The position numbers and the translations under genes are program-made. From Bacteroidales bacterium (GTDB lineage: Bacteria; Bacteroidota; Bacteroidia; Bacteroidales; WCHB1-69), in contig JAEEQA010000004.1 in NCBI GenBank assembly GCA_016285085.1, forward strand, positions 13,836 through 77,835: a stretch of 64,000 nt of DNA, in the 5' to 3' direction. The notes beneath the pieces were generated by a model. That model ran no database searches, had not been told where the DNA came from, and saw nothing but the letters and a program-made list of their open reading frames with translations. Each line of letters begins with the position of its first letter. The first letter of the stretch is position 1. Of the stretch, positions 4,585 through 50,900 are shown one piece after another.

Positions 4585-4614
4585 TGTAGAGACGCGATTC
4601 ATCGCGTCTCTACA
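4585..4614. repeat. Palindromic element copy 1 (TGTAGAGACG-CGATTCATCG-CGTCTCTACA); likely tyrS terminator hairpin
   Basis: Inverted arms GTAGAGACG/CGTCTCTAC with a self-complementary centre (CGAT..ATCG). Starts 8 bp after the tyrS stop. Confidence 0.85.
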
Positions 4615-5814: not shown

Positions 5815-5844
5815 TGTAGAGACGCGGTGCACCACGTCTCTACA
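5815..5844. repeat. Palindromic element copy 2 (centre CGGTGCACCA)
   Basis: Same arms. The inner GGTGCACC is a perfect palindrome, with one C.A mismatch next to the arms. Lies downstream of the minus-strand gene that ends at 5926. Confidence 0.85.
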
Positions 5845-5874: not shown

Positions 5875-5905
5875 TGTAGAGACGCCATATTATGACGTCT
5901 CTACA
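5875..5905. repeat. Palindromic element copy 3 (centre CCATATTATGA)
   Basis: Same arms, with a near-self-complementary 11-nt centre. It is 30 bp from copy 2 and 21 bp downstream of the stop at 5926. Confidence 0.85.
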
Positions 5906-5925: not shown

Positions 5926-7083
5926 TTATTCCCGGAACAATTTCGAATGCACCGGGAAGACATCGGCCAATTCACCGGAATAGAAGAAATCGTTGCCGAG
6001 GACACCGAAGGTGTAGGTGATGCCGTTGACCGACACGTGCGAGCCGCCGCAGCGAGGTTCCGCGCTGGGTTTGGAGGCGGCGAAACCGAGGTTGAAAAGG
6101 GTACACAGGATGTCGGGGCGGTCGGCGATGCTGTAGCCGGCACGTTCCCACTGCAACATCGTCTGGTGCAGGATACACCCTGTATAGATGTACGAATAGA
6201 GATGGTTGCGATAATCCACCAAGCGGTTGAAACGAGCCAGCTCGATGTCTTCCACTTCGGTGGTGTCGTAATCCAGAATGTTTTCGTACTCCTTGCCCAT
6301 GTAGAAGACGGAGGTGGAGTCCTTCAGGTTGCGTTCGACCTTGGCGGCGGTGAAGTCCTTGATGCCGTTGACTCCGAAGGAGAAGGTGGATTGCACGCTC
6401 ATGACGGCGGGACCAAGGTAGCGTTTCACATCCTCCCGCTTGGAATTGAAGAGGCGGATCTGTTCGCCGACGGTGCAGGCCACGATGAGGCGCGGGTCCA
6501 CGCCGGTGAGTTCGGCTGCCTGCTTGATGGCCTTCTCGTCGCGGAGGATGGCCCGTTTCAGCACTAGCCAGCCGGAGTCGTTCATCCACGGGATGAGGTT
6601 GTCGGGCGTGAGCGACTGCGGGTGCTTGCGGTAGGCCGCCATCACATCGTCGAGAATCAGGCGGTACTGCTGCCCGATGGAGTCATCCTTAAGGTACATG
6701 TTGGCAGCATAGACCATGCGGTTCACGCACTGCGGGTCGTCGCTGTGACGGCTGGCCTCGTAAATCAGGTGCGCGTTCAACGGATACGATTTGCTGAGCA
6801 CGGCGAGGTTGAGGTAGTTCTCCATCCTTTCGGCAAAGAAAGCGGATGAATCCAGCACCGTTTCCCGCTGCTGGTAATCAGCCAGATAGCGGTTGTTCTT
6901 GTCGATGCCGCCGGCGTTGTTGGTGATGCCGACTTTATAGAGGCCCCACGCCGCCACCATCGCCAAACCGACACAAGCGAACAGATGGATGAAAATCTGG
7001 TAGATTTTCGACCGCGTTTTCAGCAAACGCCACGCCTTGAAAAGCGACTTTTTCTCTGATTTTCCTAAGGATTCCGTATTCAT
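5926..7083 (-). CDS. Hypothetical membrane-anchored protein
   Basis: The ORF track gives 5926..7119. The ATG at 7083 (MNTESLG...) is preceded by a -7 box. One N-terminal TM segment ('IFIHLFACVGLAMVAAWGLY'). No family recognised. Confidence 0.55.
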   Translation of the reverse strand: MNTESLGKSEKKSLFKAWRLLKTRSKIYQIFIHLFACVGLAMVAAWGLYKVGITNNAGGIDKNNRYLADYQQRETVLDSSAFFAERMENYLNLAVLSKSYPLNAHLIYEASRHSDDPQCVNRMVYAANMYLKDDSIGQQYRLILDDVMAAYRKHPQSLTPDNLIPWMNDSGWLVLKRAILRDEKAIKQAAELTGVDPRLIVACTVGEQIRLFNSKREDVKRYLGPAVMSVQSTFSFGVNGIKDFTAAKVERNLKDSTSVFYMGKEYENILDYDTTEVEDIELARFNRLVDYRNHLYSYIYTGCILHQTMLQWERAGYSIADRPDILCTLFNLGFAASKPSAEPRCGGSHVSVNGITYTFGVLGNDFFYSGELADVFPVHSKLFRE

Positions 7084-20267: not shown

Positions 20268-23200
20268 ATGGATACTATGAAAAATATCGCTCCTTTGTCT
20301 CAATCGCAATTAGGTATTTATGCCGAATGCGTACATCACGAAAACGAGATCTTTTATAACCTCCCCTTTCTCTATGTTTTTGACGGCAGTCTCGACGCCG
20401 ACCGGTTGTGCCGCGCCATAGAGGCGACCTTAAAGGCGCATTCCACTTTCTTCACACGGATTGAACTGAGTGATGACGGAGAACCTTTGCAGACTATTGA
20501 CCTGGAAAAAGAGGAATTCAGCCTTTCCGTCGAGCAGGTTACGGACCTTGAGGCTGAGAAGCGAAAATTCATCGAGCCTTTCAAACTCCATGGCGGCAGG
20601 TTGTTTCATACCAAGGTGATGCGCGACGCGGAGCATGTCTATTGGTTCTTCGACATGCATCATATCATCAGCGACGGCTCCTCGTACCATATTATCGTTT
20701 GCGATGTGGAAACGGCTTACAACGGCGGCACGCTGGCTCCCGAGGAGATGACGATGCAGGAACTGGCCCTTGCCGAAGCCGAGATGCGGAAAACGCCTGC
20801 TTTCGAGGAGGGCAAACAGTGGTATGCCCAGAACTTCGACTGCGGCGACACGTTCACCCAGCTCATGCCCGACCTCGAAATCCCCGAACAAACAGATGCC
20901 AATAAACACCGCGTCCTCAATACTGATATGGACCGGGTGGATGCTTTCTGCAAGACCAACGGCATCAAAAAAAGCACCTTCTTCACGTCGGCATTTTCTT
21001 TCCTGCTGGCCAAGTACAACAACGATCAGGAATCGCTGTTCACCACGGTTTTCAACGGTCGCACCGACCCGAAGTTCCAACATTCCGTCGGCATGACAGT
21101 AAAGACGCTGCCCGTTTACGCCAAGTTCACGGAAGAGACCACGGTGCTCGATTTCATGAAAGCCGGCGAGGAACAGATGATCGGCTGCCGCAAGCACGAC
21201 CTCTATTCCTATACCGACATCATGACCGACCTCAACCTGCAAACCAACGCCATATTTGCATGGCACGGGCTCATACTTGATTTCACCGAACTGATGGGCA
21301 AACCCATGGAGGCCATTCAGCTCCGCAAACATAACGAGGGAGTGTCGTTCTATCTGATGGCTTACTATGTCGGCAAAAAATATCATATCAAAGCGGAATA
21401 CAACGCCAACGAATATTCCGAGACGCTGGTTGACCAATTCATGGAGAGTTACGAGGCGGTTTTGGAGGGCTTCCTAAGCCAAACTCTCCTGTGCGACATC
21501 GACATCTGCACCGAGAGCCAGCGCGCCCTGCTTGACCGTTTCAACCAGACCGACAAGGAGTTGGATATGAACGCGACCATCGTTTCCAAGTTTCGTGAGC
21601 AGGTGGCGAAGACTCCTGACAACATCGCGGTGGTTTATCAGGACAAACGTTTTACCTACAAAGAATTGGATGAGATTTCCGACCGCATCGCAGCCTATAT
21701 CCATGGGAAAGGCCTTCATGAAGAGGATGTCGTTTCTGTGTTGATTCCGCGTTGCGAATGGATGCCTATCGTCTCCATGGGCGTGTTGAAGGCCGGCTGT
21801 GCTTACCAGCCCCTCGACCCCACCTATCCTTCGGAACGTCTCAACTTCATGATGCAGGATGCCTCCGTGAGGTTGCTCATCGCCGACCCGGAACTGCGCG
21901 GTATCGTCGATCAATACACCGGCGAGGTGCTGTTTACCACGGACATCAAAACATTGGAAACCGTAGAGACGTTTCATGAAACGTCTCTACAACAGCCGAA
22001 TTCGTCCTCCCTTTTCATCATGCTTTACACTTCCGGCACTACGGGAACGCCTAAGGGCTGTCAGATTGTGCATCGCAACATCGTTGCGTTCTGCGAGTGG
22101 TACCACCACCGGTTCAACCTCACCGCTGACTGCCGCGTTTCGGCCTACGCCAGTTTCGGTTTCGATGCCAATATGATGGAAACCTATCCTGCGCTCACGT
22201 GTGGTGCCACGCTCTACATTATCCCTGAAGAACTGCGCCTGGATTTGCTGGCATTGAACGAATATTTTGAGCAAGAGCAGATTACTCACGGATTCATGAC
22301 CACGCAGGTGGCTTATCAGTTTGCCACTTCCATTGAGAACCACTGCCTGCACTACCTGTTGACAGGCGGCGAGAAGCTGGCACCCCTGACCCCGCCTGCG
22401 AACTACACGCTGGTGAACCTCTATGGTCCGACCGAAAGCACCGTCTGCATCACCTCCTTCGACGTGACAAAGCCCATGAAGGACATCCCGATTGGCTCGG
22501 CGTTGGACAACACCAAGCTTTATATTGTCGATAAGGCGGGTCACCGTCTGCCGGTGGGGGTAGCGGGTGAGCTCTGGGTCGCCGGACCGCAAGTGAGTCG
22601 CGGCTACCTCAACCGTCCCGAAAAAACCGCTGAGGTCTATATCGACAACCCCTTCGATTCCAGCGAGAAATACGCGCACATCTACCGCACCGGCGACATC
22701 GTACGCTACCTGCCCGACGGCAACATCCAGTTCGTGGGACGTAAGGACGGACAGGTCAAGATCCGCGGTTTCCGCATCGAATTAAAAGAGGTTGAAGGCA
22801 TCATCCTTCAATTCCCCGGCATCAAGGACGCCACCGTGCAAGCCTTCGATGAAGAGGGCGGCGGCAAGTTCATTGCGGCCTATATCGTTTCCGATGAACA
22901 AATTGACATCGATGCCTTGAACAACTTCATCATGGAGGAGAAACCGCCTTACATGGTGCCCGCCGTGACGATGCAGATCGACCGGATTCCGCTCAACCAG
23001 AACCAGAAAGTGAACAAGAAAGCCCTTCCCAAGCCCGAGAAGAAAGCGGCTGAGGCGGTGGTGGAGAGCAATGTGCCCATGAATGTACTTGAGAAGGAAA
23101 TCCACGACATCATTGCAAAAATCATCAATACCGAGGACTTTGGCGTAACGACCGTATTGGGCTATGTCGGCCTCACCTCCATCATGGCCATCAAACTGGC

Positions 23201-26200
23201 CATCCAGATCAACAAACGTTTCGGGGTCACCCTCGACTCGAAATCATTGGCCAAGACGGGTACTTTGCAAAGCATTGAAAACGAAATCCTAAACGCGATG
23301 CTCTCAGGAAATGTCGCTGTTCATTCCAGCGAGTCTGGGCAGTCTGTTCAGACAGAACAGGCCACTCCGACAGGTCCGGTTCCCTTGAGCTACGCGCAGA
23401 TGGGTGTCTATGTGGATTGCATGAAACAGCCCACGTCCACGGTCTATAACATTCCTTCACTCATCCGTTTTCCCAAAGGAACCGACGTGCTGCTGCTTGC
23501 CAAATCTGTGGAGACCCTCGTCAAGGCGCACCCGCAGTTCTTTGTGCATTTTGACAGCGAAGGAGGCGAAATCGTACAGATTGTTGACACCAATCAACCG
23601 GTTACCGTCACAAAGAGCCAGTTAAGTGAAACGGAACTGGAAAAATACAAGGTGAAGTTTGTAAGACCGTTCAACTTGCGGCAGGGACCGCTGTACCGCA
23701 TGGAAATCGTCACCACCGGGCAGGATGTTTACCTCTTGGCCGATGTCCATCACCTGATTTTCGACGGCGGTTCCTTCGACCTGTTCCTGAACCAGTTGTG
23801 CGACCTGATGAACGGCAAAGAGATCGAAGCCGAGGCCATCAACTATGCGGCTTTTGTCGCCGACGAGAAAGCGGCTGAAAACAGTCCGAGCTACCTTGAG
23901 GCCAAGAACTTCTTCAACGAGCGTTTGGGTAAAGTGGAGGGCGTCACCGAAGTGCCTGCCGACCTGACCAATCCCGTGGAGCAAGGCACGGTCAGCGAGG
24001 CTTTCTGCAAGCTGGATTTCGATGCGATGGAGGAATTTTGCAAGAAAAACAATCTCTCACCCGCGCACCTCACCCTGGCGGCGGTGTTCTATGCGCTCTC
24101 GCGTTTCACCAACAACGAACAGATTTGCATCACCACCATCAGCAACGGCCGCTCTGACCTGCGCATCCGCAACACGACGGGCATGTTTGTCAACACGCTG
24201 GCCCTGAGTGCCCAGATTGGCGACCAAAGCGTGATGGACTTCCTGAAGGAGACCAGCCAGAACTTCAACGAGACTTTGACCCATGAAAAATATCCGTTTG
24301 CGCAAATTGCCGCCGACTACGACCTGTCGGCCGAAATCATGTTTGCCTATCAGATGGGTGTTATTGACCAATATCTTGTCAATGGTCAAAAACTTGAAAT
24401 AGAGTCTCTTGAGCTGAACACACCGAAGTTCCGTATCGCTTTCTACATTCAAGAAAAAGAAGGTGTGCCGGGCGTGGTGGTGGAATACGACAATGGTCGC
24501 TACAGCCAGGAACTGATGCAAAGTCTGGCGCAGTCGGTCAGCAATGCAGTCAATGCTTTCATCCGCCAGCCGGAGTCGGCGTTGCAGCATATTTCCCTGC
24601 TGGATGCCGAACAGACCGCTTTGCTCGACAGCTTCAACCAGACGGCTGTGCCTTACGACGACACCCAGACCATTGTTTCGCTGTTCCGCAAGCAGGTGGA
24701 GCAAACGCCCGACAATCTGGCGGTGGTGTATCATGATAATAAATACACCTATCGCGAGGTGGATGAGATTTCGGAGCGCATCGCAGGCTATGTCGTCGCA
24801 CAAGGACTTGGGAACGAAGATGTCGTTTCCGTGCTGATTCCGCGCTGCGAATGGATGGCCATCGTTTCGTTGGGCGTTTTGAAGGCCGGCTGCGCCTACC
24901 AGCCCCTCGACCCGAGCTATCCCGCCGAACGTCTGAACTTTATGATGAAAGACGCCGCTGCAAAACTGCTCATTGCCGATGAAGAATTGCGTCCCATCGT
25001 AAATGAATATGAAGGAAAGGTGTTGTTGACAAAGGATATTGCGACATTGAACCCTGTAGAGACGTTTCATGAAACGTCTCTACATGAAACGTCTCTACAA
25101 CCGACGCCGTCCTCCCTTTTCATCATGCTTTACACCTCCGGTTCCACGGGAACGCCGAAGGGTTGTCAGCTGGAACATGGCAACTTGGTGGCTTTCTGCC
25201 ATTGGTATCAGCGCCATTATGGGCTGACGGCCGCCGACCGCGTGGCGGCGTATGCCAGCTATGGTTTCGACGCCTGCATGATGGACCTTTACCCGGCGTT
25301 GACGTGCGGTGCCTGCGTCCACATCATTGGGGATGACATCCGCCTGAACCTGCCCGACCTCAACAACTATTTCAATGAGCAGGGCATCACCCACTCGTTC
25401 ATCACCACGCAGGTGGGCTACCAGTTTGCCACGAATGTGGACAACCACTCACTGCGTTGCTTCGCGGTGGGTGGCGAGAAGCTGTCCGCCCTCAACCCGC
25501 CGACAAACTACAAGATGTACAACGGCTACGGTCCGACGGAGTGTACCATCTTCACCACCAACTACTGGGTGAAGGATTACGAGCTGGACATCCCCATCGG
25601 CAAACCGCTGGACAACCTGAAACTCTATATCGTTGACAAGCAGTTTAATAGATTGCCTCTCGGGGCTGCCGGCGAACTATGGGTCACGGGACCGCAGGTG
25701 AGCCGTGGCTACCTGAACCGTCCCGAAAAGACGGCCGAGACCTACCTGAAGAACCCCTTCAGCGATGACCCGAAGCACGCCCGCGTCTATCGCACCGGCG
25801 ACATCGTGCGCTACCTCCCTGACGGCAACATCCAGTTTGTGGGGCGCAAGGACGGTCAGGTGAAAATTCGCGGCTTCCGCATCGAGCTGAAGGAGGTGGA
25901 AGCTGTCATCCGCCAGTATCCGGGCATCAAGGACGCCACCGTACAAGCCTTTGATTATGAGAACGGTGGAAAGTACATTGCCACCTATATTGTCAGCGAT
26001 GAGAAAGTTGACATCAAACAGCTCAATGCTTTCATCGGGCAGCAGAAACCGCCCTACATGATTCCGGCGGCGACGATGCAGATTGACAGCATCCCGCTGA
26101 ACCAGAACCAGAAGGTGAACCGCAAGGCACTGCCCACGCCCGTCATCCAAGCCAGCGACCGTGAGTATGTGGCACCGGCCAATTCGGCGGAGGAGCTGTT

Positions 26201-27602
26201 CTGCCGTATCTTCGGTGAGGTGCTCGCTCTCGACAAAGTCGGCGCCACCGACAACTTCTTCGATCTCGGCGGCACCTCTCTGATGGTGACCCGCGTCATC
26301 ATCGAGGCCGACAAGCAGGGGGTGCATGTGGCCTACGGCGACGTCTTCGCCAATCCCACCCCGCGCAAACTCGCCGCACTCGTCATGGGAGGCATTGTTG
26401 TCAATACCGACGATGAGGAGGTGACCCGATTTGATTATTCTTCCATCAACAATTTACTGGGTAACAATACATTGGATAGCTTCCGCAATGGCGAGCGGCA
26501 ATCCTTGGGCAACGTTCTGCTCACCGGTGCCACAGGTTACCTGGGCATTCATGTGTTGCAGGAACTGATCCAGTCGGATGCGCAGAACATCTACTGTCTG
26601 GTACGCGACAAGAACCTGGATGGCGCCGAGCACCGGTTGAAAACATTGCTGTTCTACTATTTTGAATCCACCTACGACGAGCTGTTCGGCAACCGTCTTC
26701 ACATTGTCCTTGGCGATGTCACCAACGACCTGACCGCTCTTGTCGAAGCGAAGATTGACACGGTGTTCAACTGTGCCGCTGTCGTAAAGCACTTCAGTGA
26801 AGGCACCGAGATTGAGGATGTGAATGTGGGAGGCGCGCAGCGTTGTGTGGAGCTCTGTCTGAAGACCGGCGCACGGTTGGTACACATTTCCACGTACAGC
26901 ACCAGCGGGCTCAACGTCAACGACACCATGGCTTCCGACTACATCTTCACCGAGCAGCGGCTTTACGACGGTCAGTACCTCGGAAACCAGTACGTTCATT
27001 CCAAGTTCATGGCCGAACGCATCGTACTGCAATCGATAGTAGAGGACGGGCTGTCGGCCAAGGTGATCCGTGTCGGTAACCTGGCGGCACGCACCAGCGA
27101 CGGTGAGTTCCAGATCAACTTCTCCACCAACTCCTTTATGGGGCGTATCAAAGTCTTTAACATGCTGGGCTGCTTCCCCTATTCTCTGTACGAGAGTAAA
27201 GTGGAGTTTTCACCCATTGATGAGGTGGCGCATGCCATCATTCTGCTCAGTTCCACACCCAAGGAGTGCTGTGTGTTCCATGCTTACAACAGCCACGAGC
27301 AGTTCCTCGGCGACGTCCTCAGCGGATTCAACAACCTGGGCACAAACATCCGTCTCGTGGAGGACGAGGAGTACAACGCCACCATGGAGAGTGCGGGCAA
27401 CGATCCCCAGAAGGCCAAGACGCTTTCCAGCTTGCTCGCTTACCAAGATATGGCCCACGGCATGAAAGTCAAACAGGTGGTCGTTAGTAACCAGTACACC
27501 ACGCAGGTGCTCTATCGTCTGGGCTTCAAATGGTCGCCCACCACGTGGGACTACGTCGATCGCATGTTGAGTGCCATCAGCGGGTTGGGATTCTTTGATT
27601 AG
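20268..27602 (+). CDS. Bimodular non-ribosomal peptide synthetase, C-A-T-C-A-T-R (terminal thioester reductase)
   Basis: 2444 aa. Two 'HHxxxDG' C-domain motifs (HHIISDG, HHLIFDG). Two adenylation cores ('LYTSG(T/S)TGTPKG', 'YGPTE', 'GELWV.GPQVSRGY', 'YRTGD', 'GRKDGQVKIRGFRIEL'). Two carrier sites ('GLTS', 'LGGTS'). The C-terminal SDR carries 'LLTGATGYLG' and 'YVHSK'. Confidence 0.93.
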   Translation: MDTMKNIAPLSQSQLGIYAECVHHENEIFYNLPFLYVFDGSLDADRLCRAIEATLKAHSTFFTRIELSDDGEPLQTIDLEKEEFSLSVEQVTDLEAEKRKFIEPFKLHGGRLFHTKVMRDAEHVYWFFDMHHIISDGSSYHIIVCDVETAYNGGTLAPEEMTMQELALAEAEMRKTPAFEEGKQWYAQNFDCGDTFTQLMPDLEIPEQTDANKHRVLNTDMDRVDAFCKTNGIKKSTFFTSAFSFLLAKYNNDQESLFTTVFNGRTDPKFQHSVGMTVKTLPVYAKFTEETTVLDFMKAGEEQMIGCRKHDLYSYTDIMTDLNLQTNAIFAWHGLILDFTELMGKPMEAIQLRKHNEGVSFYLMAYYVGKKYHIKAEYNANEYSETLVDQFMESYEAVLEGFLSQTLLCDIDICTESQRALLDRFNQTDKELDMNATIVSKFREQVAKTPDNIAVVYQDKRFTYKELDEISDRIAAYIHGKGLHEEDVVSVLIPRCEWMPIVSMGVLKAGCAYQPLDPTYPSERLNFMMQDASVRLLIADPELRGIVDQYTGEVLFTTDIKTLETVETFHETSLQQPNSSSLFIMLYTSGTTGTPKGCQIVHRNIVAFCEWYHHRFNLTADCRVSAYASFGFDANMMETYPALTCGATLYIIPEELRLDLLALNEYFEQEQITHGFMTTQVAYQFATSIENHCLHYLLTGGEKLAPLTPPANYTLVNLYGPTESTVCITSFDVTKPMKDIPIGSALDNTKLYIVDKAGHRLPVGVAGELWVAGPQVSRGYLNRPEKTAEVYIDNPFDSSEKYAHIYRTGDIVRYLPDGNIQFVGRKDGQVKIRGFRIELKEVEGIILQFPGIKDATVQAFDEEGGGKFIAAYIVSDEQIDIDALNNFIMEEKPPYMVPAVTMQIDRIPLNQNQKVNKKALPKPEKKAAEAVVESNVPMNVLEKEIHDIIAKIINTEDFGVTTVLGYVGLTSIMAIKLAIQINKRFGVTLDSKSLAKTGTLQSIENEILNAMLSGNVAVHSSESGQSVQTEQATPTGPVPLSYAQMGVYVDCMKQPTSTVYNIPSLIRFPKGTDVLLLAKSVETLVKAHPQFFVHFDSEGGEIVQIVDTNQPVTVTKSQLSETELEKYKVKFVRPFNLRQGPLYRMEIVTTGQDVYLLADVHHLIFDGGSFDLFLNQLCDLMNGKEIEAEAINYAAFVADEKAAENSPSYLEAKNFFNERLGKVEGVTEVPADLTNPVEQGTVSEAFCKLDFDAMEEFCKKNNLSPAHLTLAAVFYALSRFTNNEQICITTISNGRSDLRIRNTTGMFVNTLALSAQIGDQSVMDFLKETSQNFNETLTHEKYPFAQIAADYDLSAEIMFAYQMGVIDQYLVNGQKLEIESLELNTPKFRIAFYIQEKEGVPGVVVEYDNGRYSQELMQSLAQSVSNAVNAFIRQPESALQHISLLDAEQTALLDSFNQTAVPYDDTQTIVSLFRKQVEQTPDNLAVVYHDNKYTYREVDEISERIAGYVVAQGLGNEDVVSVLIPRCEWMAIVSLGVLKAGCAYQPLDPSYPAERLNFMMKDAAAKLLIADEELRPIVNEYEGKVLLTKDIATLNPVETFHETSLHETSLQPTPSSLFIMLYTSGSTGTPKGCQLEHGNLVAFCHWYQRHYGLTAADRVAAYASYGFDACMMDLYPALTCGACVHIIGDDIRLNLPDLNNYFNEQGITHSFITTQVGYQFATNVDNHSLRCFAVGGEKLSALNPPTNYKMYNGYGPTECTIFTTNYWVKDYELDIPIGKPLDNLKLYIVDKQFNRLPLGAAGELWVTGPQVSRGYLNRPEKTAETYLKNPFSDDPKHARVYRTGDIVRYLPDGNIQFVGRKDGQVKIRGFRIELKEVEAVIRQYPGIKDATVQAFDYENGGKYIATYIVSDEKVDIKQLNAFIGQQKPPYMIPAATMQIDSIPLNQNQKVNRKALPTPVIQASDREYVAPANSAEELFCRIFGEVLALDKVGATDNFFDLGGTSLMVTRVIIEADKQGVHVAYGDVFANPTPRKLAALVMGGIVVNTDDEEVTRFDYSSINNLLGNNTLDSFRNGERQSLGNVLLTGATGYLGIHVLQELIQSDAQNIYCLVRDKNLDGAEHRLKTLLFYYFESTYDELFGNRLHIVLGDVTNDLTALVEAKIDTVFNCAAVVKHFSEGTEIEDVNVGGAQRCVELCLKTGARLVHISTYSTSGLNVNDTMASDYIFTEQRLYDGQYLGNQYVHSKFMAERIVLQSIVEDGLSAKVIRVGNLAARTSDGEFQINFSTNSFMGRIKVFNMLGCFPYSLYESKVEFSPIDEVAHAIILLSSTPKECCVFHAYNSHEQFLGDVLSGFNNLGTNIRLVEDEEYNATMESAGNDPQKAKTLSSLLAYQDMAHGMKVKQVVVSNQYTTQVLYRLGFKWSPTTWDYVDRMLSAISGLGFFD
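20280..21557 (+). other. NRPS condensation domain C1 (N-terminal, starter-like position)
   Basis: Approximately aa 5-430; HHIISDG at aa 131-137 (nt 20658-20678). Boundaries approximate. Confidence 0.7.
21576..23042 (+). other. NRPS adenylation domain A1
   Basis: Approximately aa 437-925. A3 'LYTSGTTGTPKG', A4 'FDANMME', A5 'NLYGPTESTVCIT', A10 'NQNQKVNKKAL'. Boundaries approximate. Confidence 0.75.
21963..21990. repeat. Palindromic element copy 4 (centre TTTCATGAAA), in-frame inside NRPS A1
   Basis: A perfect 28-bp palindrome, GTAGAGACGTTTCATGAAACGTCTCTAC. It is translated as VETFHETSLQ (aa 566-575), immediately N-terminal to the A3 core motif. Confidence 0.9.
23079..23297 (+). other. NRPS carrier (T/PCP) domain T1
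   Basis: Approximately aa 938-1010. The attachment site is 'GYVGLTSIMAIKL' (Ser971, nt 23178-23180), which deviates from the canonical LGGxS. Confidence 0.6.
23373..24662 (+). other. NRPS condensation domain C2
   Basis: Approximately aa 1036-1465; HHLIFDG at aa 1161-1167. Confidence 0.7.
24669..26147 (+). other. NRPS adenylation domain A2
   Basis: Approximately aa 1468-1960. A3 'LYTSGSTGTPKG', A4 'FDACMMD', A5 'NGYGPTECTIFTT'. Long stretches are near-identical to A1. Confidence 0.75.
25055..25099. repeat. Palindromic element copy 5 (centre TTTCATGAAA) plus a 15-bp partial duplication, in-frame inside NRPS A2
   Basis: The full palindrome at 25056-25083 is followed by a repeat of its right half, ATGAAACGTCTCTAC (25084-25098). 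Translated as VETFHETSLHETSLQ (aa 1597-1611), at the position homologous to copy 4. Confidence 0.9.
26175..26387 (+). other. NRPS carrier domain T2
   Basis: Approximately aa 1970-2040. Canonical 'FFDLGGTSLM' (Ser2004). Confidence 0.75.
26514..27599 (+). other. NRPS terminal thioester reductase (R) domain
   Basis: Approximately aa 2083-2444. Rossmann 'TGATGYLG' and catalytic 'Y(2242)VHSK(2246)'. Confidence 0.8.
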
Positions 27603-27636
27603 GGGGATAAAAAGGGAATATTGCTGAAAAAGGTCC

Positions 27637-29328
27637 TTATTCCTTCACCACCTTCCCCACGGATATCACCTTGCCGTCGTCCACCAATTTCACGAAATAG
27701 ATGCCGTTGGCGTAACGGGACAGATCAATCTGTACGGCCTGTAGAGACGTTTCATGAAACGTCTCTACAATATCCAACATCCTGCCAAACACGTCAAACA
27801 CCTGGATTTCAGGGTTAAGGGACAAGGTTTCCGGAGCCAGTTGGACGGTGGCGATGCCCGTGGTGGGGTTCGGATAGAGGATGAGGTCCGTGGTGCTGTT
27901 TTCGGTGATACCGACTATGGCATTTAGACAGCTGGTGGTGTCGGTACATCCGTTATAGGTGATAATGCAAGCGTATGAACCAGATGTCACGGGTTCAAAC
28001 AACCGTTCGGTAGCATTTTCAACCCACTCATTGGTTCCACAATCAATCCATTGGTATTCAGCGTTTTCTTGAGCTGCTTCCATTCTAATTGCGTACCATT
28101 GTGTACCAATCCAAGTAAGTCCTGTATTGATGCGGGTCACTGTCAAGGTCATGATGACAAGGCTGTCGCAGTCATTCGAGGAAGTCAGCATTACGCTGTC
28201 CGTGCCGTCGTTCTCAAACACAATACCGTTCCATGTATAGGGAAGTTCGCTCTCGCAAATGGTGGCTTCAACCAATTCGGTTACCGGTGTGTATATGGTA
28301 AGGTGCAGTATGATAGTGCTGTCGCTGTTCTCGATAGGATGCGTATAGTCTCCGCTGGAGGTGAGTTCTTCGCCGTACCAGTCGAAACTGCCACAGGCAA
28401 CGGCAGTGGTGTCAATAATGACAGGAGGTTCCACTCCCGCTGCCCAAAGCCGGAGGTTGTCGAGATAAAGGGACGAGCCCTGTTGCGGTTCGGAGTTGGC
28501 CGAAGAGAAGATCATAATCACCAGCGAATCGGCCTCCACATATTCAACGGTGCTGTCGATTTCGGAAAGCGGGGTATAGACAATTTCGAAGGGGGTGTAG
28601 GCCGAAACGTCCGTCAGGTTTGCGGTGTATCCGCCGCCCACGACCTCGCGCTGCTGCGTGGCAGGATTGTACTTGGACCCCAGCACCAGAATGCCGCCCT
28701 TGTCCCCGCCAACGCCCGAGGTGTATTTGTAATAGCCCGTCATCCGGCCAAAAGCCTCTCCGTTCAAGGGAATACCGCCGTCAATGATACTGTTGAGATC
28801 GACGCTGTCAAAGACACCCAGCAACAGGGGAAGACTGTCGAAATTGTTGGTGAAATCTTCTAACATCGGCAGCAGCTGGTCGATATCCACCGCGCCTGTG
28901 GTCAAAACCGTCGGGAACACCGTGGTGGTCAGCCACTCGTCTAAAGAGGATGAAGCCAGATTGTAAACGGTGGAATTGACGATGTCGGAGAGCATGAAAC
29001 TCTGCAGCTTGACCGCATGGGAACCCTCGGGCACGCCGGTGGTTTCGTCGGAAACTTTCAGTAGCGGAAGGTCCGTGTTCACATTGACCGTCATTCCGAA
29101 ATAGGTGACACTCTCGTTCACGGGATAGGTGGGGTAATTCCAGCCCGTCGGATACGTATAGCTATCGTAAACAGGCAAGGAGATAAAACCGCCCACGGAT
29201 GCGCTGTACCCATTGCCTGTTGACCAGTTCTCAAAACCGCTGTTTGTCAGAGGAATGGAATTTTGTCCCGTCGTCTTCACCGACAGGAGAAAAAAGAGGG
29301 GTAAAAGGAGAAGGATAAAACGTTTCAT
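27637..29328 (-). CDS. T9SS C-terminal-sorting-domain cargo protein (secreted, function unknown)
   Basis: The ORF track gives 27637..29370, but its first 14 codons derive from palindrome copy 7. The ATG at 29328 gives the signal peptide 'MKRFILLLLPLFFLLSVKTTGQ'. The N-terminal region is 'NSGFENW'-type. The C-terminus 'LYPNPTTG....VFDVFGR......IDLS.YANGIYFVKL...K' matches the Por_Secre_tail pattern. Confidence 0.78.
   Translation of the reverse strand: MKRFILLLLPLFFLLSVKTTGQNSIPLTNSGFENWSTGNGYSASVGGFISLPVYDSYTYPTGWNYPTYPVNESVTYFGMTVNVNTDLPLLKVSDETTGVPEGSHAVKLQSFMLSDIVNSTVYNLASSSLDEWLTTTVFPTVLTTGAVDIDQLLPMLEDFTNNFDSLPLLLGVFDSVDLNSIIDGGIPLNGEAFGRMTGYYKYTSGVGGDKGGILVLGSKYNPATQQREVVGGGYTANLTDVSAYTPFEIVYTPLSEIDSTVEYVEADSLVIMIFSSANSEPQQGSSLYLDNLRLWAAGVEPPVIIDTTAVACGSFDWYGEELTSSGDYTHPIENSDSTIILHLTIYTPVTELVEATICESELPYTWNGIVFENDGTDSVMLTSSNDCDSLVIMTLTVTRINTGLTWIGTQWYAIRMEAAQENAEYQWIDCGTNEWVENATERLFEPVTSGSYACIITYNGCTDTTSCLNAIVGITENSTTDLILYPNPTTGIATVQLAPETLSLNPEIQVFDVFGRMLDIVETFHETSLQAVQIDLSRYANGIYFVKLVDDGKVISVGKVVKE
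27640..27890 (-). other. T9SS type-A C-terminal sorting domain (interrupted by a 10-aa palindrome-encoded insert)
   Basis: The last ~83 aa. Boundaries approximate. Confidence 0.7.
27741..27768. repeat. Palindromic element copy 6 (centre TTTCATGAAA), in-frame inside the T9SS sorting domain
   Basis: The same perfect 28-bp palindrome as copies 4 and 5. On the minus strand it again reads VETFHETSLQ. It lies about 140 bp beyond the convergent NRPS stop. Confidence 0.9.
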
Positions 29329-29358
29329 TTGGGAAATGATTAGGGTTTTGTTTAAAAT

Positions 29359-29386
29359 GTAGAGACGCAAAATTTTGCGTCTCTAC
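29359..29386. repeat. Palindromic element copy 7 (centre CAAAATTTTG), intergenic
   Basis: A perfect palindrome, GTAGAGACGCAAAATTTTGCGTCTCTAC. It sits 16 bp downstream of the stop at 29402 (minus strand) and 31 bp upstream of the start at 29328. Confidence 0.9.
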
Positions 29387-32289: not shown

Positions 32290-32317
32290 GTAGAGACGCA
32301 AAATTTTGCGTCTCTAC
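32290..32317. repeat. Palindromic element copy 8 (centre CAAAATTTTG), between the TM1266-like gene and hydG
   Basis: Identical 28-mer to copy 7. Coordinates are anchored on ORF-track positions (hydG start 32245; ORF 32306; stop 32323). Confidence 0.9.
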
Positions 32318-44953: not shown

Positions 44954-47900
44954 TTATTTCACAATGATGAATTTAACCGTCTTAACATCGTTCGTACCGG
45001 TTACAATACGTCCGAAGTATGTACCCTGCGCTTCGAAGCCGCTAACCTTCGTGATAACCTGGAGGTTGGTGACATGTTGTACGAGGGCACCCTTGGCGTC
45101 ATAGATGTCGAGGTAAGCACCATTCAGTTCTTCGTCGCTCAACGGGAGCTCAACAGTGATTTCGACACCAACGTTGGCAGGAACAGGATAGACACGGATC
45201 TGCGGGTTCGTGGCAATCATCATTTCACAGGTCATGTACTCATTACCCAGATCATCGATGACATACAGGCTGTAGAAGCCGTTGAGACCACCAACCTCCT
45301 GATAGTACTGGTCGTTAGCACCCGGGATGGCTTCACCGTTTCTGTACCACTGGTAGTACACGAAGGTGTGACCACCGTTGGTTGCAGGATTGTTGTTGCA
45401 GACAACAACGTCATCCCACTTCTGATCCATAATCTGAGTGATACCGTAGTTACCCCAGAGAATCTGAACCGTAACATCATATTCGCAACCGTCAATGATG
45501 ATACCGAAGTGGTATGTACCAGGCTCGCTCGTCGGCATGTAAACCGTGGCCGTGTTGTTGGTCAGGTCGAGGATGTCGAAGGAGTAGTCGAAGCCAAGAT
45601 TGTCATAGTCGTCGATCTCGAACCAGACAGTGTCACGATCATCGTTGACCGTCAAGTTGTTGAACAAGAACGTTGCAGTCGGATGGTCTCCTTCCGGACA
45701 GATGGAAACACTGTCAACCACAATCTCGAAGTGAGAAATGACAACCGTAACCGTGTTAGTGTTGACCACCTCACCATCGCAGTATCTGTCAGACAACTGG
45801 AAGACCTGGTAGGTCGTGGACACATTCGGTGTAACCTCGATAGAGTACTGATGCGAGTAAGTGGTGTGCTCGGTAATGACACCAGTGGTCATATCCTGCA
45901 GTGAGAAGTGGAACGGAGCAGTACCCGTGAAGGTGAAGTTAATCGTAGCATTGTCATCACCGTTGTTCCAGCAGAGAATGTCGGAACCGTTACCGAGAGT
46001 CATAGTAACTGTCGGATGTTCGTGTACAGTGATGATGTTACCGGAGAGGTTCGGCGTGTTGCTCGGAGCGCAGTTGGTGTTGGACGGAGCCACGTAAGTC
46101 GGGTAGTAAACGTATGTACCCGGAGTGCTTGCGTAGTCGCAAGAAACACCACCCAATCCGCAGGAGACAAGGTTCACGTCATTCAGGTCGGTAACAGGAG
46201 CATAGACCCACTGGATGTACGAACCAGTCTGGTGGTTGGCATCTTCGACACCGCCTTCGATGTAGGCGATGAGAGTGACGCGCTCACCTTCGCAGATGTC
46301 AGAGTTGCCGCTGGCAGTAGTGACAACAGCCTCTGTCCATCTCGGCTGGTAGAGGACGTGTACCGTAACATTGTCAGAGGTGGCACGACAGCCCGTAGCA
46401 GCGGCGTAGGTGACACCCACAGAGTAGTTGTAGGTACCGACGAGATCATTCGTATCCGTGTAGATAGTGGTCATATTGTCGTAAGCGGAGATACGAGCGC
46501 TGTTGCGTCTCCAGACGATGGTCGGTTCACCAACACCGCCTTCGATGACAGCGTTGAGTTCAACATAACCACCTTCGCAAACCTGGAGGATACCAGCGTA
46601 GTTGATACCAACGTACGGCTGATCAACCACTTCAATATTCACAGTCTGGACATCCGACTGGCAACCAGTGTTGTAGCTGTTGTTCACCGTAGCAAACACG
46701 CTGCAGGTTACCGTACCCGTATGGTCAGGTGTGATCGTAATCGTGTTGGAAGCACCCGTGCTGTAGTTGCGACCATCAACAACCCAAGTGTAGAGGACAT
46801 TGCTGTTGTCAGCATTCAGGTTGTCCGTCATTGAAGCCGTCAGCGTAACGGTACCACCGATACACATCTGGTTCTCAGGCAGAGAGGTCACAATGCTGTC
46901 GATAGTCGGGTCAGCCACAACGGTATAGGTGAAGGTAGCCGTAGCTCTGCAATCAATATCGTAGGTGGCGTTCCAAACCTCAACACTGTAAGTATAGGTA
47001 CCGGCAGCAAGTGTAGCATCCGTGGTGATAGCGGCGGTATTGAAGCCAAGAGCCATACCGTCTCTGTACCAAGCGTAGTTGTAACTGTTACCAGTCAGCA
47101 TCGGATAGACATTGGCTGTGAGCTCAACACTACCGCCTTCGCAGACCGCTTCATAACCAGAGATGGTAACTGTCGGGACAGCGATGACATTGGCATTGAC
47201 TGGTTCAGAAATCGCGTTGCAACCTGTCAGGTCAGCAGGCGTGATTTCAACTCTATAGATATAGTTACCAGCCACCAGTGAAGCATCCGTAGTGTAGGTG
47301 TCACTGTTGGAGCCAACAACTTCGTTGTCTCTGTACCAAGTGTAGTTGTAGGTGACACCGGCAACCGTTTCGGTTACCACAGCGTTCATCGTAACCACAC
47401 CGCCTTCGCAAACGTCAGCATTGTTGACGATGGCAACCACAGGATCAGCAACCACATTGGCAGTGACCACACCCGAGGTGACGGTGCAACCAGAGATCGG
47501 GTTGTTGACCGTTACAGAGTAGCTGTAGGAACCAAGTGCCAGGAGCGTATCCGTGGTGTAGGTGGACTCGGTAGCGCCAGCGATAATCTGAGCGTGACCG
47601 CCTTCAACTCTATTCCACTGATAAGTTACGTTAGCACCATAGGTTTCGTCAACTTCAGCATTCAAGGTGATCTGGCCACCGACACAGACGTTGGCAGCAC
47701 CGCTGATTTCAACCGTAGGAGCAGTGACCACGGAAACGATGACCGTGTTGGATTCACCATCGCAAGCCACACCGTTAGCGCGAACTGTTACATAGTAGCT
47801 GTAGTCAGCTGCCGGCAGCGTGGCATCCGTAGTCAGAGTCGGGTTGGTCTCACCGGCGAGGATGATACCGTTGCGATACCACTGATACTGGTATTCAATA

Positions 47901-50900
47901 CCGTCGATACCATTATCAATGTGGTGGACATACAACTGGGTTGAACCACCTTCGCAAACCGTGGTGTCGTAGTCAACATTGACAGCGATGAACGGAGCAG
48001 GATCGTCAACAACCGTGAAGGTGTAAACGCCTGTGTTACCCTGGACAGCCGTGTTGACATCGCAACCGTAGGCATTGTCTTCGAAGGACATAACCACAGT
48101 GTAGTTATAGGTTCCGGCAGCAAGCGTATCCGGGATGACGTAGGTGTTACCTGTGCCAACCTGTTCGCCGTTGTTGAACCAAGTGTAGGTGGGAGTACCC
48201 ATACCGTTGATCTGGTCAACACCGCCTGTGTAAGAGGCGTTCAAGGTAGCAGTACCGCCGACACAAACCGTGCTTGCGCCATTGTTGTCGATGTCAACCA
48301 AAGTGACAATCGGGTCAGCAACAACGTTGATAGCAACAGCCTGAGCCATCGTGGAGGTGATGCAGCCAGGAGCGCTTTCCACAACAACGTGGACCATGTA
48401 CGGAGTCTCTCTTGCAGCCAGGCCTTCGGCAACATACACATTCGTGTCGTAACCAACCTGTTCGTTGTCCAAGTACCACTGATACGTGTACGTTTCGTTG
48501 GCAGGATCAACATTGGCCGTCAGTGTGACATTGCCACCGTCGCAAACCGTGAGAGAACCATCGGTTACAACACTGACCGTAGCGTGCGGGTTCACCGTCA
48601 CAACCGGAGCAGCAACCTCTTCGGAGGTACAACCGCTGGCGGTCAGGGTCACGATAGCACTATAGATAATCTCAGTGACATCGTTGTCAACAACTGTCGG
48701 GTAGTCAGTGAAGGTGTTGGAAGTGTAACCATCCATTCTTTCACCATTCTTGTACCAAGTGTAGGTAGCCTCGCCGAGGACATCTTCAAGGTTTGCATTG
48801 GCTGTCACCACAACAGCACCACCGTCGCAAACAACCGTGTTGTTCACAGTAATGTCGGTGATGGCCGGATCGTTGTGGACATTGATGACAACGTCAGCAG
48901 AACCGATGCAGTCGGAAGTGGTCTGGTAAACGAGCACCGTGTAGGTGTAAGTACCAGCTCTCAGGTCATTCGGAGTGACATAGGTCTCTTCGTTGGCACC
49001 GTGGATGGTGTCACCTTCGAGCAACCACTGGTAGGTCAAGTTCTCAGCATTTCTGTCAATGATGTGGGACACCAAGGTGGTGGTGCCGCCGACACAGTAG
49101 TCAGCTTCAACAGCCTCAGCATTCACAACAGGAGCAGCCTTCACAAGGACATTGAAATCGTCGCCAGTGGTGCAACCGTTTTCGTTGTGGACAACCACCT
49201 GGAATTCGTACGGATTAACGTTCGGCTCAAGAACAGTGTCAAGTACGTTCGTCGTGAAGCCGAGAGTGTTGTTGAACAATCTCCATTCATAGGTGAAGCC
49301 GTCAACGAGATCGCTGTGGTCATTGACATTGGCCGTCAAGTGGACAGAAGTAGCATTGTCACCCGAACCGCAGATGACCGGGTCTCCAGCGATGACAACC
49401 GTCGGGTTCGGACGGACCGTCACCGTGATGGTGGAGGAGTCAGTCACAACAGACTGGCAACCAGAAGCGGTCAGGGTAGCAATCACCGTGTAGGTGTAGG
49501 TAGTGATGTCGTTGTCAACCGTGACAGGCGACTCAGTCAGAGTGGCATCGTGAGCGTCAACAAGCTCTTCGCCGTTTCTGGTCCAGGTGTAAGTAGCTTC
49601 ACCGAGGACTTCATCGTAATTGGCTGTAGCCGTCAGAGTGAACTCACCACCATCGCAAATCACGGTGTCTTCATCGCTGATAGCCAAGGAGACGGTCGGG
49701 TCTTCGTGGACAGTGACCGTAACGGTGGCTCTGGACAGGCAAGAGGTTGTGGGTTGAGCAACCAAAACTTCAAACGTATAGTCTGCAACAGTATCAAGTG
49801 TAGTAGTGTAGGCAGCGCTGGTGGCACCTGCAATACTGTCGGAACCGAGCATCCACTGATAGGTCAGACCTTCAATATTGTAGTTGTCAAGATGTGCGCT
49901 CACCGTCACCTGACCACCTGCGCAGATGTCAGTTTCGGAAGTGAGAGCGGTGACAACAACCGGTTCGTGGACGGTTACGTCAAACACTTCGCTGGTCGTC
50001 GTGCAACCATTTTCATTGCGTACAATTACAGTGAAGAGATACGGCTCGTCATTGGGTTCGAGAACGATGTTGAGTTCTGAACCGTCAGCACCGCTGATAA
50101 CTCTTGCATCCGTGCTGTCAATTGTTCTGGTGAACAGTCTCCATTCGTAGGTGTAACCGTCAGCATCCGTAATAGTGTCATTGACATTGGCAATGAGCTT
50201 GCAAGTGTCAAGGCCTTCGCCGGCACCGCAGATGTTGTGGTCGCCTTCGATTTCAACCACAGGATTACCATAGACATGGACATCGATTGTGGAGGAGTCG
50301 CTGATGACAGACTGGCAGCCAGACTGTGCAAGGGTAACAATGACCTGGTAACGGTAGTCAGTGACATCACCGTCAACCGTAACCGGGGAGTCGGTCAGGA
50401 CACTGTCAGTAGCATTTTCAACTCTGACACCATTTCTGAACCATGTGAACACCGGTTCGCCAAGTTCAGGATCGTAGCTGGCCGTAGCCGTCAAAGTGAT
50501 CTGGCCACCGTCGCAGATGTTCGTGTCAGGTGTCTCGTCGCTGATGGCGAGGGTGACAGTAGGATCGTTGTGGACAGTGACAGAATCACTACCGTAGGCC
50601 ACGCAACCGGAGGTCGGCTGGTAAATCTTCACGAAGAAGGTGTATGTATCAGCCGTATCCAGCGTGGTGGTGTAAGTGGACTGAGTGGCACCGCCAATCA
50701 TATCGGCATCGGTGGTGTCTTCAGCAAACCACTGGTAGGTCAAGTTCGGCATGTTGTAGTCACCGATGTTGGCCGTGAAGGTGACAGTACCGCCTTCACA
50801 GATGTCAGTTTCATCAACCGTCACAACGATGCTGGCCGTATCGTTCACATAAACATAGAAGTCGGCACTTTCATTGGTGCAACCGTTCGGGTTGTGGACG

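Follow-up and report, generated by a model that had tools for sequence, protein, structure and literature searches.

A palindrome in both adenylation domains of a rumen Bacteroidales peptide synthetase is probably a mobile REP lodged in a permissive loop

Introduction

What does it mean that the same perfect palindrome sits at the equivalent codon in both modules of a nonribosomal peptide synthetase (NRPS), and that half of it is repeated in one of them? The locus lies in a stretch of 64,000 nucleotides on contig JAEEQA010000004.1 of assembly GCA_016285085.1 (G000:C109:13836-77835 in our numbering of genomes and contigs), here called the window, whose positions are used unless another contig is named. 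The source, G000, is a metagenome-assembled genome (MAG) of an uncultured rumen Bacteroidales bacterium, 2.58 Mb in 132 contigs and 94% complete. An earlier reading of the sequence alone had regarded the palindrome as a feature of the NRPS modules and proposed three histories for it: insertion before the modules were duplicated, gene conversion between them, or site-specific targeting. Our analysis suggests that the palindrome in module 2 is probably one copy of a mobile family of repetitive extragenic palindromes (REPs), sited in a permissive hot-spot loop in which such elements are turned over in place. The features on which the argument turns are these:

25056..25083, + strand: REP, a perfect 28-bp 'double-foot' palindrome GTAGAGACG-TTTCATGAAA-CGTCTCTAC, in frame in the A2-A3 linker of NRPS module 2, encoding VETFHETSL (sequence, translation and fold)
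25084..25098, + strand: extra 15-bp half unit ATGAAACGTCTCTAC, a tandem copy of 25069-25083 that adds HETSL (exact repeat)
21963..21990, + strand: identical REP at the aligned codon of NRPS module 1, TLET-VETFHETSL-QQPN (exact match; flanks also kept in the orthologue L162)
20268..27602, + strand: NRPS host gene, 2444 aa, with condensation (C), adenylation (A), thiolation (T) and reductase domains in the order C-A-T-C-A-T-reductase (open reading frame and Pfam domains)

Results

The palindrome and its place in the synthetase

The palindrome at 25056-25083 is GTAGAGACGTTTCATGAAACGTCTCTAC, and the plus strand over 25041-25110 reads GCGACATTGAACCCT GTAGAGACGTTTCATGAAACGTCTCTAC ATGAAACGTCTCTAC AACCGACGCCGT; split at the palindrome centre, the site is ...TTGAACCCT GTAGAGACGTTTCA|TGAAACGTCTCTAC ATGAAACGTCTCTAC AACCGACG..., with a period-15 repeat that spans 25068-25099. 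The sequence-only reading had described a real, in-frame structure, a palindrome followed by a 15-bp repeat of its right half, and had set its start one base early, at 25055. Its peptide, VETFHETSL-HETSL-Q, is confirmed in the NRPS frame, where module 2 is translated as ...DIATLNP-VETFHETSL-HETSL-QPTPSSLFIMLYTSGSTGTPKG (QPTPSS after HETSL) and module 1 as TLET-VETFHETSL-QQPNSSSLFIMLY (QQPNSSS). The identical 28-mer that it had reported at the homologous site of module 1 is an exact match at 21963-21990 and falls in the same alignment column as the module 2 copy. In the following, site A1 and site A2 denote these positions in the first and second adenylation domain, as distinct from the adenylation core motifs A2 and A3.

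Pfam resolves the 2444-aa protein into two Condensation, two AMP-binding and two PP-binding domains and one NAD_binding_4 domain. When aligned to the closest solved adenylation domain, that of LgrA (6MFY), the REP-encoded peptide is placed in an unconserved stretch that separates core motif A2 (LKAGCAYQPLDP) from core motif A3 (LFIMLYTSGSTG), two residues past a conserved TL and upstream of the A3 motif LFIMLYTSG(S/T)TGTPKG. Around this site the two modules share 68% protein identity, and the two-module gene is common to many rumen Bacteroidales genera and Prevotella. As the reading frame is intact and the linker varies in all relatives, the function of the NRPS is probably unaffected by the peptide.

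A dispersed family of double-foot REPs

The palindrome also occurs outside the synthetase, in the neighbouring gene:

27741..27768, - strand: third identical REP, in frame in the C-terminal sorting domain of the neighbour gene (exact match)
27637..29370, - strand: gene for a 577-aa type IX secretion system (T9SS) cargo protein (Por_Secre_tail) that holds the third REP (Pfam)

Here the Por_Secre_tail domain (PF18962) covers residues 498-570, and the REP codes for about residues 535-543. Three exact copies in the window compare with 0.00 expected from 100 shuffles. Moreover, all three belong to a family that we define as GTAGAGACG-N10/11-CGTCTCTAC and that counts 125 members in G000 when searched strictly, 158 with one mismatch allowed per arm and 218 with two. 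With a third copy in the window, 158-218 members in the genome and further members across the order, the palindrome can no longer be regarded as a feature of NRPS modules. The family scan places five more members in the window, none with an assigned strand:

4586..4613: REP of the same family, core CGATTCATCG (family scan)
5816..5843: REP of the same family, core CGGTGCACCA (family scan)
5876..5904: REP of the same family, 11-nt core CCATATTATGA (family scan)
29359..29386: REP of the same family, core CAAAATTTTG, the most abundant subfamily (family scan)
32290..32317: REP of the same family, core CAAAATTTTG (family scan)

All members follow one layout of 28 or 29 bp: a 5' GTAG foot, a conserved outer stem of 9 bp, a variable self-complementary core of 10 or 11 nt and a 3' CTAC foot. 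The outer 9-mer GTAGAGACG occurs 325 times in G000, against 17 occurrences of a control word, and the cores fall into discrete self-complementary types, among them CAAAATTTTG (42 copies), TTTCATGAAA (26), CGCCATGGCA/TGCCATGGCG, TGGTGCACCG/CGGTGCACCA, ATGTGCACAT, GGGCGCGCCC and the 11-mer CCATATTATGA. For the 28-mer with core TTTCATGAAA, the type found in the NRPS, 26 copies are exact, 29 are reached with at most one mismatch, and 6 lie beyond the exact ones at up to three mismatches; the control word gives 0.

The elements are conserved as structures. As DNA, the 28-mer is predicted to fold into a hairpin of -12.6 kcal/mol (z = -8.05), a stability that none of 200 shuffles attained. Perfect self-complementarity is found in 98 of 182 ten-nt cores, rare variants of the feet change in pairs (GTGG...CCAC, GTTG...CAAC), and the outer stem has 44 compensated pairs beside 147 changes on one arm only. 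Of the compensated pairs, ten or more are independent: they are seen in isolated copies or in groups of few members, for which the chance expectation is well below one. Flanking bases are asymmetric, CCT-[REP]-AAC, with C at -2 in 21 and T at -1 in 22 of 29 copies, and A at both +1 and +2 in 26 of 29. Cleavage by purified TnpAREP enzymes takes place at a CT located 5' or 3' of the REP, and for one enzyme at CA as well (Corneloup et al., 2021, PMC8266576); the CT 5' of the foot and the CA at the 3' junction of our elements fit such cleavage sites as far as their sequence goes. Judged at this level, the palindrome is a double-foot REP.

How can such an element reside in genes? Since the palindrome reads alike on both strands, it offers three frames only, of which one has a TAG and, for the TTTCATGAAA core, a second has a TGA, leaving GTA GAG ACG ... 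(VETFHETSL) as the sole open one. Only 37 of 158 REPs (23%) lie in open frames of at least 250 aa, compared with 75% of random 28-mers, a three-fold depletion in coding DNA. Among these 37, the VET frame (VET...SL) is used by 29, the RD frame (RD...VS), which is open to other cores, by 8, and the TAG frame by none; in coding DNA, then, only stop-free frames are seen.

The distribution of the family is patchy. It is present in 17 of 18 genomes of the genus, in 3-105 copies, and also in several other families of the order, with other cores on a strongly conserved outer stem. Within the taxonomic family, the TTTCATGAAA 28-mer (at most one mismatch) is found in 44 of 152 genomes and 7 of 22 genera, in 1-76 copies. 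A replicating element would be expected to leave such uneven, burst-like counts. In single species of other genera, G053, G084, G080 and G126, the 28-mer reaches 76, 54, 44 and 36 copies, with none in their sister species; such jumps point to recent bursts or to horizontal spread of one subfamily.

Several other identities were considered. Every REP holds GAGACG and CGTCTC, that is, two inverted recognition sites of the BsmBI/Esp3I type. An engineered or cloning origin, suggested by these sites, was discarded given about 200 copies in the MAG and the occurrence of the 28-mer in 44 of 152 genomes of the family. A literature search for the 9-mer GTAGAGACG returned unrelated primer sequences only. 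A bidirectional terminator does not fit the flanks, which are T...A instead of an A-run...T-run. We also rejected a clustered regularly interspaced short palindromic repeat (CRISPR) array, as single copies are spread over more than 60 contigs, clusters consist of differing cores and the 'spacers' are themselves repeated. A miniature transposable element with inverted repeats (MITE) was dismissed for want of a flanking direct repeat and a target-site duplication, and for the asymmetric CCT...AAC flanks and the replacement of ancestral sequence.

In intergenic DNA, REPs with mixed cores also form clusters at a spacing of 46-60 nt (G000:C12:31106-31239; C21:4298-4384 and 6013-6099; C45:4708-4795). 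Four intergenic clusters have a common flank of about 30 nt (aaccgttattatg.aacc.cct [REP] aacggaacattacac.cctgccc), so that a larger composite repeat carries REPs around the genome.

RAYT-like genes linked to the family

Which enzyme could move these elements? REPs of TnpAREP subclass 2.4, known from Cyanobacteria and Bacteroidetes, form a long hairpin that carries GT[AG]G at its 5' end and C[TC]AC at its 3' end; REPs within the transposase gene have been described for this subclass, short repeats making the region variable (Quentin et al., 2018, BMC Genomics 19:475, PMC6006769). Candidate REP-associated tyrosine transposase (RAYT) genes surfaced in G000 only at relaxed profile thresholds. One, at G000:C99:12136-12897(-), has the motifs NHIH, WQPRF and YIEQNV; its sole NCBIfam match is NF047646 REP_Tyr_transpos (E 1e-15, below the curated cut-off) and its sole PDB match E. 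coli TnpAREP, 4ER8 (E 3.9e-5). The gene has an insert made of a family REP (core TGCCATGGCG) and four extra 15-bp half units, NHIHAIVVIDGGKTGDCRDVP(WRVST)x5...WQPRF. Of 30 RAYT-like loci in 41 genomes, 18 have REPs of the family in the gene or no more than 400 nt from it, typically on both sides as well as inside, with one core type per gene; in a gene of G080:C66 with core CAAAATTTTG, the REP peptide SETQNFASL stands between the HuH and WQ motifs.

The elements thus resemble the double-foot REPs of subclass 2.4 (Bertels group 4) in their feet, single long hairpin, phylum, in-gene REPs and variable repeat region. They differ in having uncultured rumen Bacteroidales as hosts and in the many discrete cores on one 9-bp outer stem, with one core per RAYT-like gene, and the Y motif is YIEQNV or YIRNNP here against a subclass consensus of YIxNNP. 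By these sequence features the family is probably a REPtron, including the in-gene insertion specific to the subclass, with RAYT enzymes that are putative.

Other transposase-like genes are present in G000. One at C84:8273-9034(+), with DHIH, WQ and YIRNNP (PF01797, 32.6 bits), holds three in-frame copies of a different, canonical REP, GGTAAGGGCACCCTTCACGGGTGCCC (peptide EVREVR(A/V)PFTGA), so that a second REP-RAYT pair coexists in the genome. A third RAYT-like frame, C49:6730-7400(+), beginning VVMPNHIH..., has an interrupting TGA; probably a pseudogene, it has a TTTCATGAAA REP at a distance of 2 kb but none at its flanks. The two Y1 transposases that match PF01797 clearly, on C31 and C77, were set aside as cognate enzymes, being subclass 1.2-like (DHIH, YIMRQKEHH) and flanked by other hairpins, without GTAGAGACG repeats.

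Probable turnover at the linker in orthologous genes

To what extent is the adenylation-domain site special? We compared the linker between 'TL' and 'LF(I/T)(M/L)LYTSG' in about 160 orthologous NRPS loci and found it hypervariable: most alleles are of an 'ancestral' type unrelated to the REP, for example LPAAEPVKADITPSS, a minority carry REPs, and others carry tandem microsatellites of 6-9 nt, CAACTG(T/C), TCAATTG, GACCTTAAG, TTCACTC or CCGAATACT. At site A2 five REP cores occur in identical register, TTTCATGAAA, GTGCATGCAC, TTGCGCGCAA, TGCCATGGCG and ATGTGCACAT, other alleles being empty there, and at site A1 at least two. The A2-A3 linker is a permissive, insertion-tolerant hot spot.

The microsatellites lie about 20-70 nt upstream of the YTSG codons in L030, L031, L069, L089, L055, L042, L101, L210 and L195, and the linker of one orthologue holds another hairpin, CCTCCCCTCGGGGAGG. 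Within one genome, the linkers of modules 1 and 2 are often near-identical, and the loop is thus a general sink for slippage-prone DNA.

The closest relative, L162 (metagenome contig Ga0310690_10000158; 94% aa identity), has the same REP and flanks at site A1. At site A2 it reads ACCGAAT-GTGGAGACAGTGCATGCACCGTCTCCAC-TA where G000 has GAACCCT-[REP + half unit]-AACCG, although the flanks are 99-100% identical and the surrounding several hundred bases 95-100%. Likewise, L023 and L169 differ at the linker by one 36-nt block between near-identical flanks. Along the NRPS, nucleotide identity of G000 and L162 is mostly about 85-100% in 100-nt windows; synteny stops exactly at the NRPS stop codon (window 27602-27640; L162 6300-6400), and the T9SS-cargo gene that hosts the third REP is absent downstream of the NRPS in L162. 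G014, the closest relative within the genus (91% aa identity), has no REP at either site; a decayed REP in its 'empty' linker was looked for and rejected, with 9 of 28 positions matching, about as many as by chance.

For a tree of the orthologues we used 2.2 kb of DNA around the linker and left out the linker itself. On this tree the REP alleles are interspersed with empty ones, so that at least eight changes of presence and at least ten of core are needed, and grouping the REP alleles into one clade is rejected (delta lnL 1518; approximately unbiased test, p-AU 6e-6). For other loci, a search with concatenated queries for occupied and empty sites gave clean orthologous pairs at three loci only, many matches being paralogues of a secreted-protein family. 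Two loci unrelated to the NRPS show the same exchange of cores at one site. An intragenic REP at C96:26109 is common to four genomes of the genus, with three cores; at the nrdD/nrdG junction (C77:10132), G000 and G014 have REPs that are not alike, and four other genomes have none.

These comparisons bear on the proposed histories. A single insertion before the module duplication, inherited by both modules, has in its favour only the equivalent position in both; against it, the modules are 68% identical in protein where the REPs are 100% identical in DNA, and the two-module gene of many genera, including Prevotella, mostly lacks the element at both sites, as does G014. The chance that this history is correct is practically nil.

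Gene conversion, with the REP copied from site A1 to A2 or the reverse and the shared position reflecting concerted evolution of paralogous modules, finds more in its favour. Four of five contigs with REPs at both sites have the same core at both (G000, L026, L070, L050/L190), and in G000 the 27 nt downstream, TCCTCCCTTTTCATCATGCTTTACAC, are identical at A1 and A2. Some distant orthologues, L069 for example, have near-identical 72-nt linkers in both modules, and module-to-module conversion therefore occurs in the NRPS family. However, between the REP and the identical 27 nt there are an indel and several mismatches (AACAGCCGAATTCG vs AACCGACGCCG), the immediate 5' flanks differ (GGAAACC vs GAACCCT), and identity of A1 and A2 ends at the AAC that is the family's consensus flank. 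Furthermore, L162 combines the same REP and flanks at A1 with another REP at A2, L082 has a REP at A1 only, and L023 and L024 have one at A2 only. Conversion is thus not required, and we consider it unlikely to account for the G000 alleles. We rather infer that the A1 and A2 loops, paralogous and both permissive, were each occupied separately by a REP, owing neither to inheritance through the module duplication nor to a long conversion tract. Among the three histories originally offered, site-specific targeting comes nearest, in that the linker is a recurrent hot spot; it has to be modified to a permissive loop with in-place replacement of REPs.

Could the palindromes instead be sites selected by the host and tolerated in genes, such as binding sites of a dimeric DNA-binding or nucleoid protein, RNA stabilizers, or a restriction-related motif with its two CGTCTC sites? 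The conservation of the outer stem across families of the order and the maintenance of pairing by compensated changes would be in keeping with this, and REPs elsewhere have been assigned roles in binding of gyrase and integration host factor (IHF) and in mRNA stability (PMC3733652). Yet species within one genus hold anything between 0 and over 100 copies, the exact 28-mer varies from 0 to 76, presence is polymorphic at orthologous sites, the elements are physically tied to RAYT-like genes, and they are three-fold depleted in coding DNA. All these points fit a replicating element, for which a secondary host function is possible; a purely host-selected origin seems to us highly improbable.

The half-unit duplication

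How did the second copy of the right half come about in module 2? A CA stands at either end of the duplicated unit, TTT[CA]TGAAACGTCTCTA[CA]ACC, the junctions being the central C|ATG and the terminal CTAC|A. The array in the C99 RAYT-like gene has the same structure with another core (...C|ATGGCGCGTCTCTAC|A..., four extra units), again in frame, and a lone right half, of the same or another core, follows REPs at C51, C117, C50, L154 and L268. The duplication noticed by the sequence-only reading is therefore a lesion recurrent in the family, and not an oddity of the NRPS. With it, the left arm can pair with the distal half over 17 bp, at -17.7 kcal/mol.

An assembly or consensus artefact, the true allele being the plain 28-mer, would be in line with the finding that among about 160 orthologous loci the 43-bp form is seen in G000 only, and with the difficulty of sequencing and assembling palindromes. 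On the other hand, the duplication is exact and in frame, and the same lesion, with up to five units, occurs in another gene with the frame kept. De Bruijn assemblers usually collapse short tandem repeats rather than create them. The exact 2444-aa protein, including HETSLHETSL, is also encoded on a different, 44,112-bp contig of GCA_016648615.1, a second record that may not be independent of the first. Taken together, an artefact is quite improbable.

Mechanistically, the extra 15 bp would involve two CA dinucleotides of the hairpin, the central one (C|ATG) and the terminal one (CTAC|A), with misalignment or strand transfer from one to the other. Either the hairpin would promote replication misalignment on 1-2 nt of microhomology, followed by slippage between the 15-bp direct repeats, or a RAYT-type enzyme would cleave at the loop CA and the 3' CA and transfer strands between copies; once present, two units could expand by ordinary slippage, as in the five-unit C99 array. 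Both routes fit the duplication, which does not separate them.

Discussion

Our analysis agrees with an origin of the NRPS palindrome as one member of a replicating REP family. What weighs against this reading? The REP is not a clean insertion: it replaces about 24 bp of ancestral linker (VEPVKADI -> VETFHETSLP) for a net gain of 6 bp, and comparison of occupied alleles with the ancestral linker reveals no target-site duplication. The ancestral stretch itself starts with GTGGAG, which resembles a foot. Recombination may have blurred the flank tree, on which the tested clade was named after the tree had been seen. The RAYT-like proteins score below curated cut-offs (NF047646, 57.9 and 57.2 against 80; PF01797, 18.5 against 23 for C99), and in the C99 protein the in-gene REP array splits the transposase domain, the matches to NF047646 and 4ER8 each falling into two stretches. 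A search of G000, and of five genomes that hold 21-76 copies, for a RAYT gene with flanking REPs of the TTTCATGAAA core found none; mobilization of this subfamily by a RAYT would therefore be by analogy. Finally, mobility of the REPs would be read here from sequence polymorphism, and the 15-bp duplication is known from assemblies only.

How does the family compare with known palindromic elements? Orthologous intergenic loci of E. coli and Salmonella are said to carry genome-specific variants of palindromic units, which would imply in-place replacement or concerted evolution. In our case the turnover takes place in a coding loop between alleles with flanks that are 97-100% identical, and the block includes about 7 nt of 5' flank. 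Rickettsia palindromic elements (RPEs), of which RPE-1 is reportedly 100-150 bp long, are said to lie in frame in Rickettsia genes and to have no dedicated transposase. Membership among these elements was ruled out for our palindrome, which is 28 bp long, RAYT-linked and of another sequence and phylum; its in-frame peptide behavior is alike.

Closer parallels exist among REPs proper. Intragenic GTAG/CGTC REPs of other phyla lie entirely within open reading frames, which they lengthen by about 10-30 residues without shifting them; some genes have two, and loops are presumably where they are tolerated (Di Nocera et al., 2013, PMC3733652). The elements described here show the same in-frame behavior, in an NRPS adenylation domain and in the same loop of both modules. 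GTAG REPs were reported in that survey from Proteobacteria, Cyanobacteria, Chloroflexi and the Planctomycetes-Verrucomicrobia-Chlamydiae (PVC) group, and not from Bacteroidetes (PMC3733652). With the REPINs and REPtrons of Pseudomonas and the bacterial interspersed mosaic elements (BIMEs) of E. coli, our family has in common the GTAG guide, the hairpin, the adjacent CT/CA and one RAYT, putative here, per REP population (Bertels and Rainey, 2011; Ton-Hoang, 2012; Corneloup, 2021, PMC8266576). REPINs, however, are inverted REP doublets with a spacer and almost all extragenic, whereas our element is a single 28-bp palindrome with both feet, about a quarter of whose copies lie in long open frames. 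In-frame REPs, even two per gene, are thus known, and the NRPS adenylation-domain loop hit in both modules, in a rumen Bacteroidales, is a new instance; for in-place core turnover, scrambling of the 5' flank and half-unit arrays we found no description for subclass 2.4.

How might one REP give way to another at the same codon? A lodged REP would be replaced in place as a block of about 36 nt (some 7 nt of 5' flank, the REP and 1-5 nt), either through RAYT-type cleavage and rejoining at the flanking CT/CA sites or through template switching between REP copies. A bolder scenario makes the occupied site a 'landing pad': a RAYT would repeatedly cut the flanking CT/CA and swap REP cassettes, so that REPs would not mainly spread to new places, and the half-unit arrays (two units at A2, five in the RAYT-like gene) would be footprints of strand transfer between the loop CA and the 3' CA. 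Besides these arrays, the scenario would account for five cores that share a codon position between near-identical flanks, and for the scrambling of 7 nt 5' of the REP; we regard it as speculative and somewhat unlikely. If true, it would provide the first in vivo record of subclass 2.4 RAYT cleavage-and-joining chemistry, and REP-occupied loops would constitute fast-evolving peptide cassettes in proteins.

Membership in a replicating REP family, the reading that we favor, would explain a strange NRPS feature as ordinary selfish DNA, and annotators and NRPS engineers could treat VETFHETSL(HETSL) as a neutral passenger in a loop between motifs A2 and A3 that naturally accepts 8-22 unrelated residues. 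It would further extend double-foot REPs and putative RAYT genes to uncultured rumen Bacteroidales, as a large family with many cores, in which one 28-mer ranges in bursts from 0 to 76 copies between species. Cores that differ at one codon between near-identical flanks, and recurrent 15-bp half-unit arrays, could then serve as testable footprints of the in vivo action of a subclass 2.4 transposase, for which there is no biochemistry yet.

Further observations

Two observations stand apart from the REPs. Some orthologous alleles (L023, L035, L048 and others) combine a very different first adenylation domain (linker ...PHSLMTMIYTSG) with the same second module, and whole modules or adenylation domains are therefore swapped within the NRPS family. 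The window also contains, without a member of the REP family in it, a single minus-strand open frame of 6340 aa at 44954-63976, which is open to the window end.

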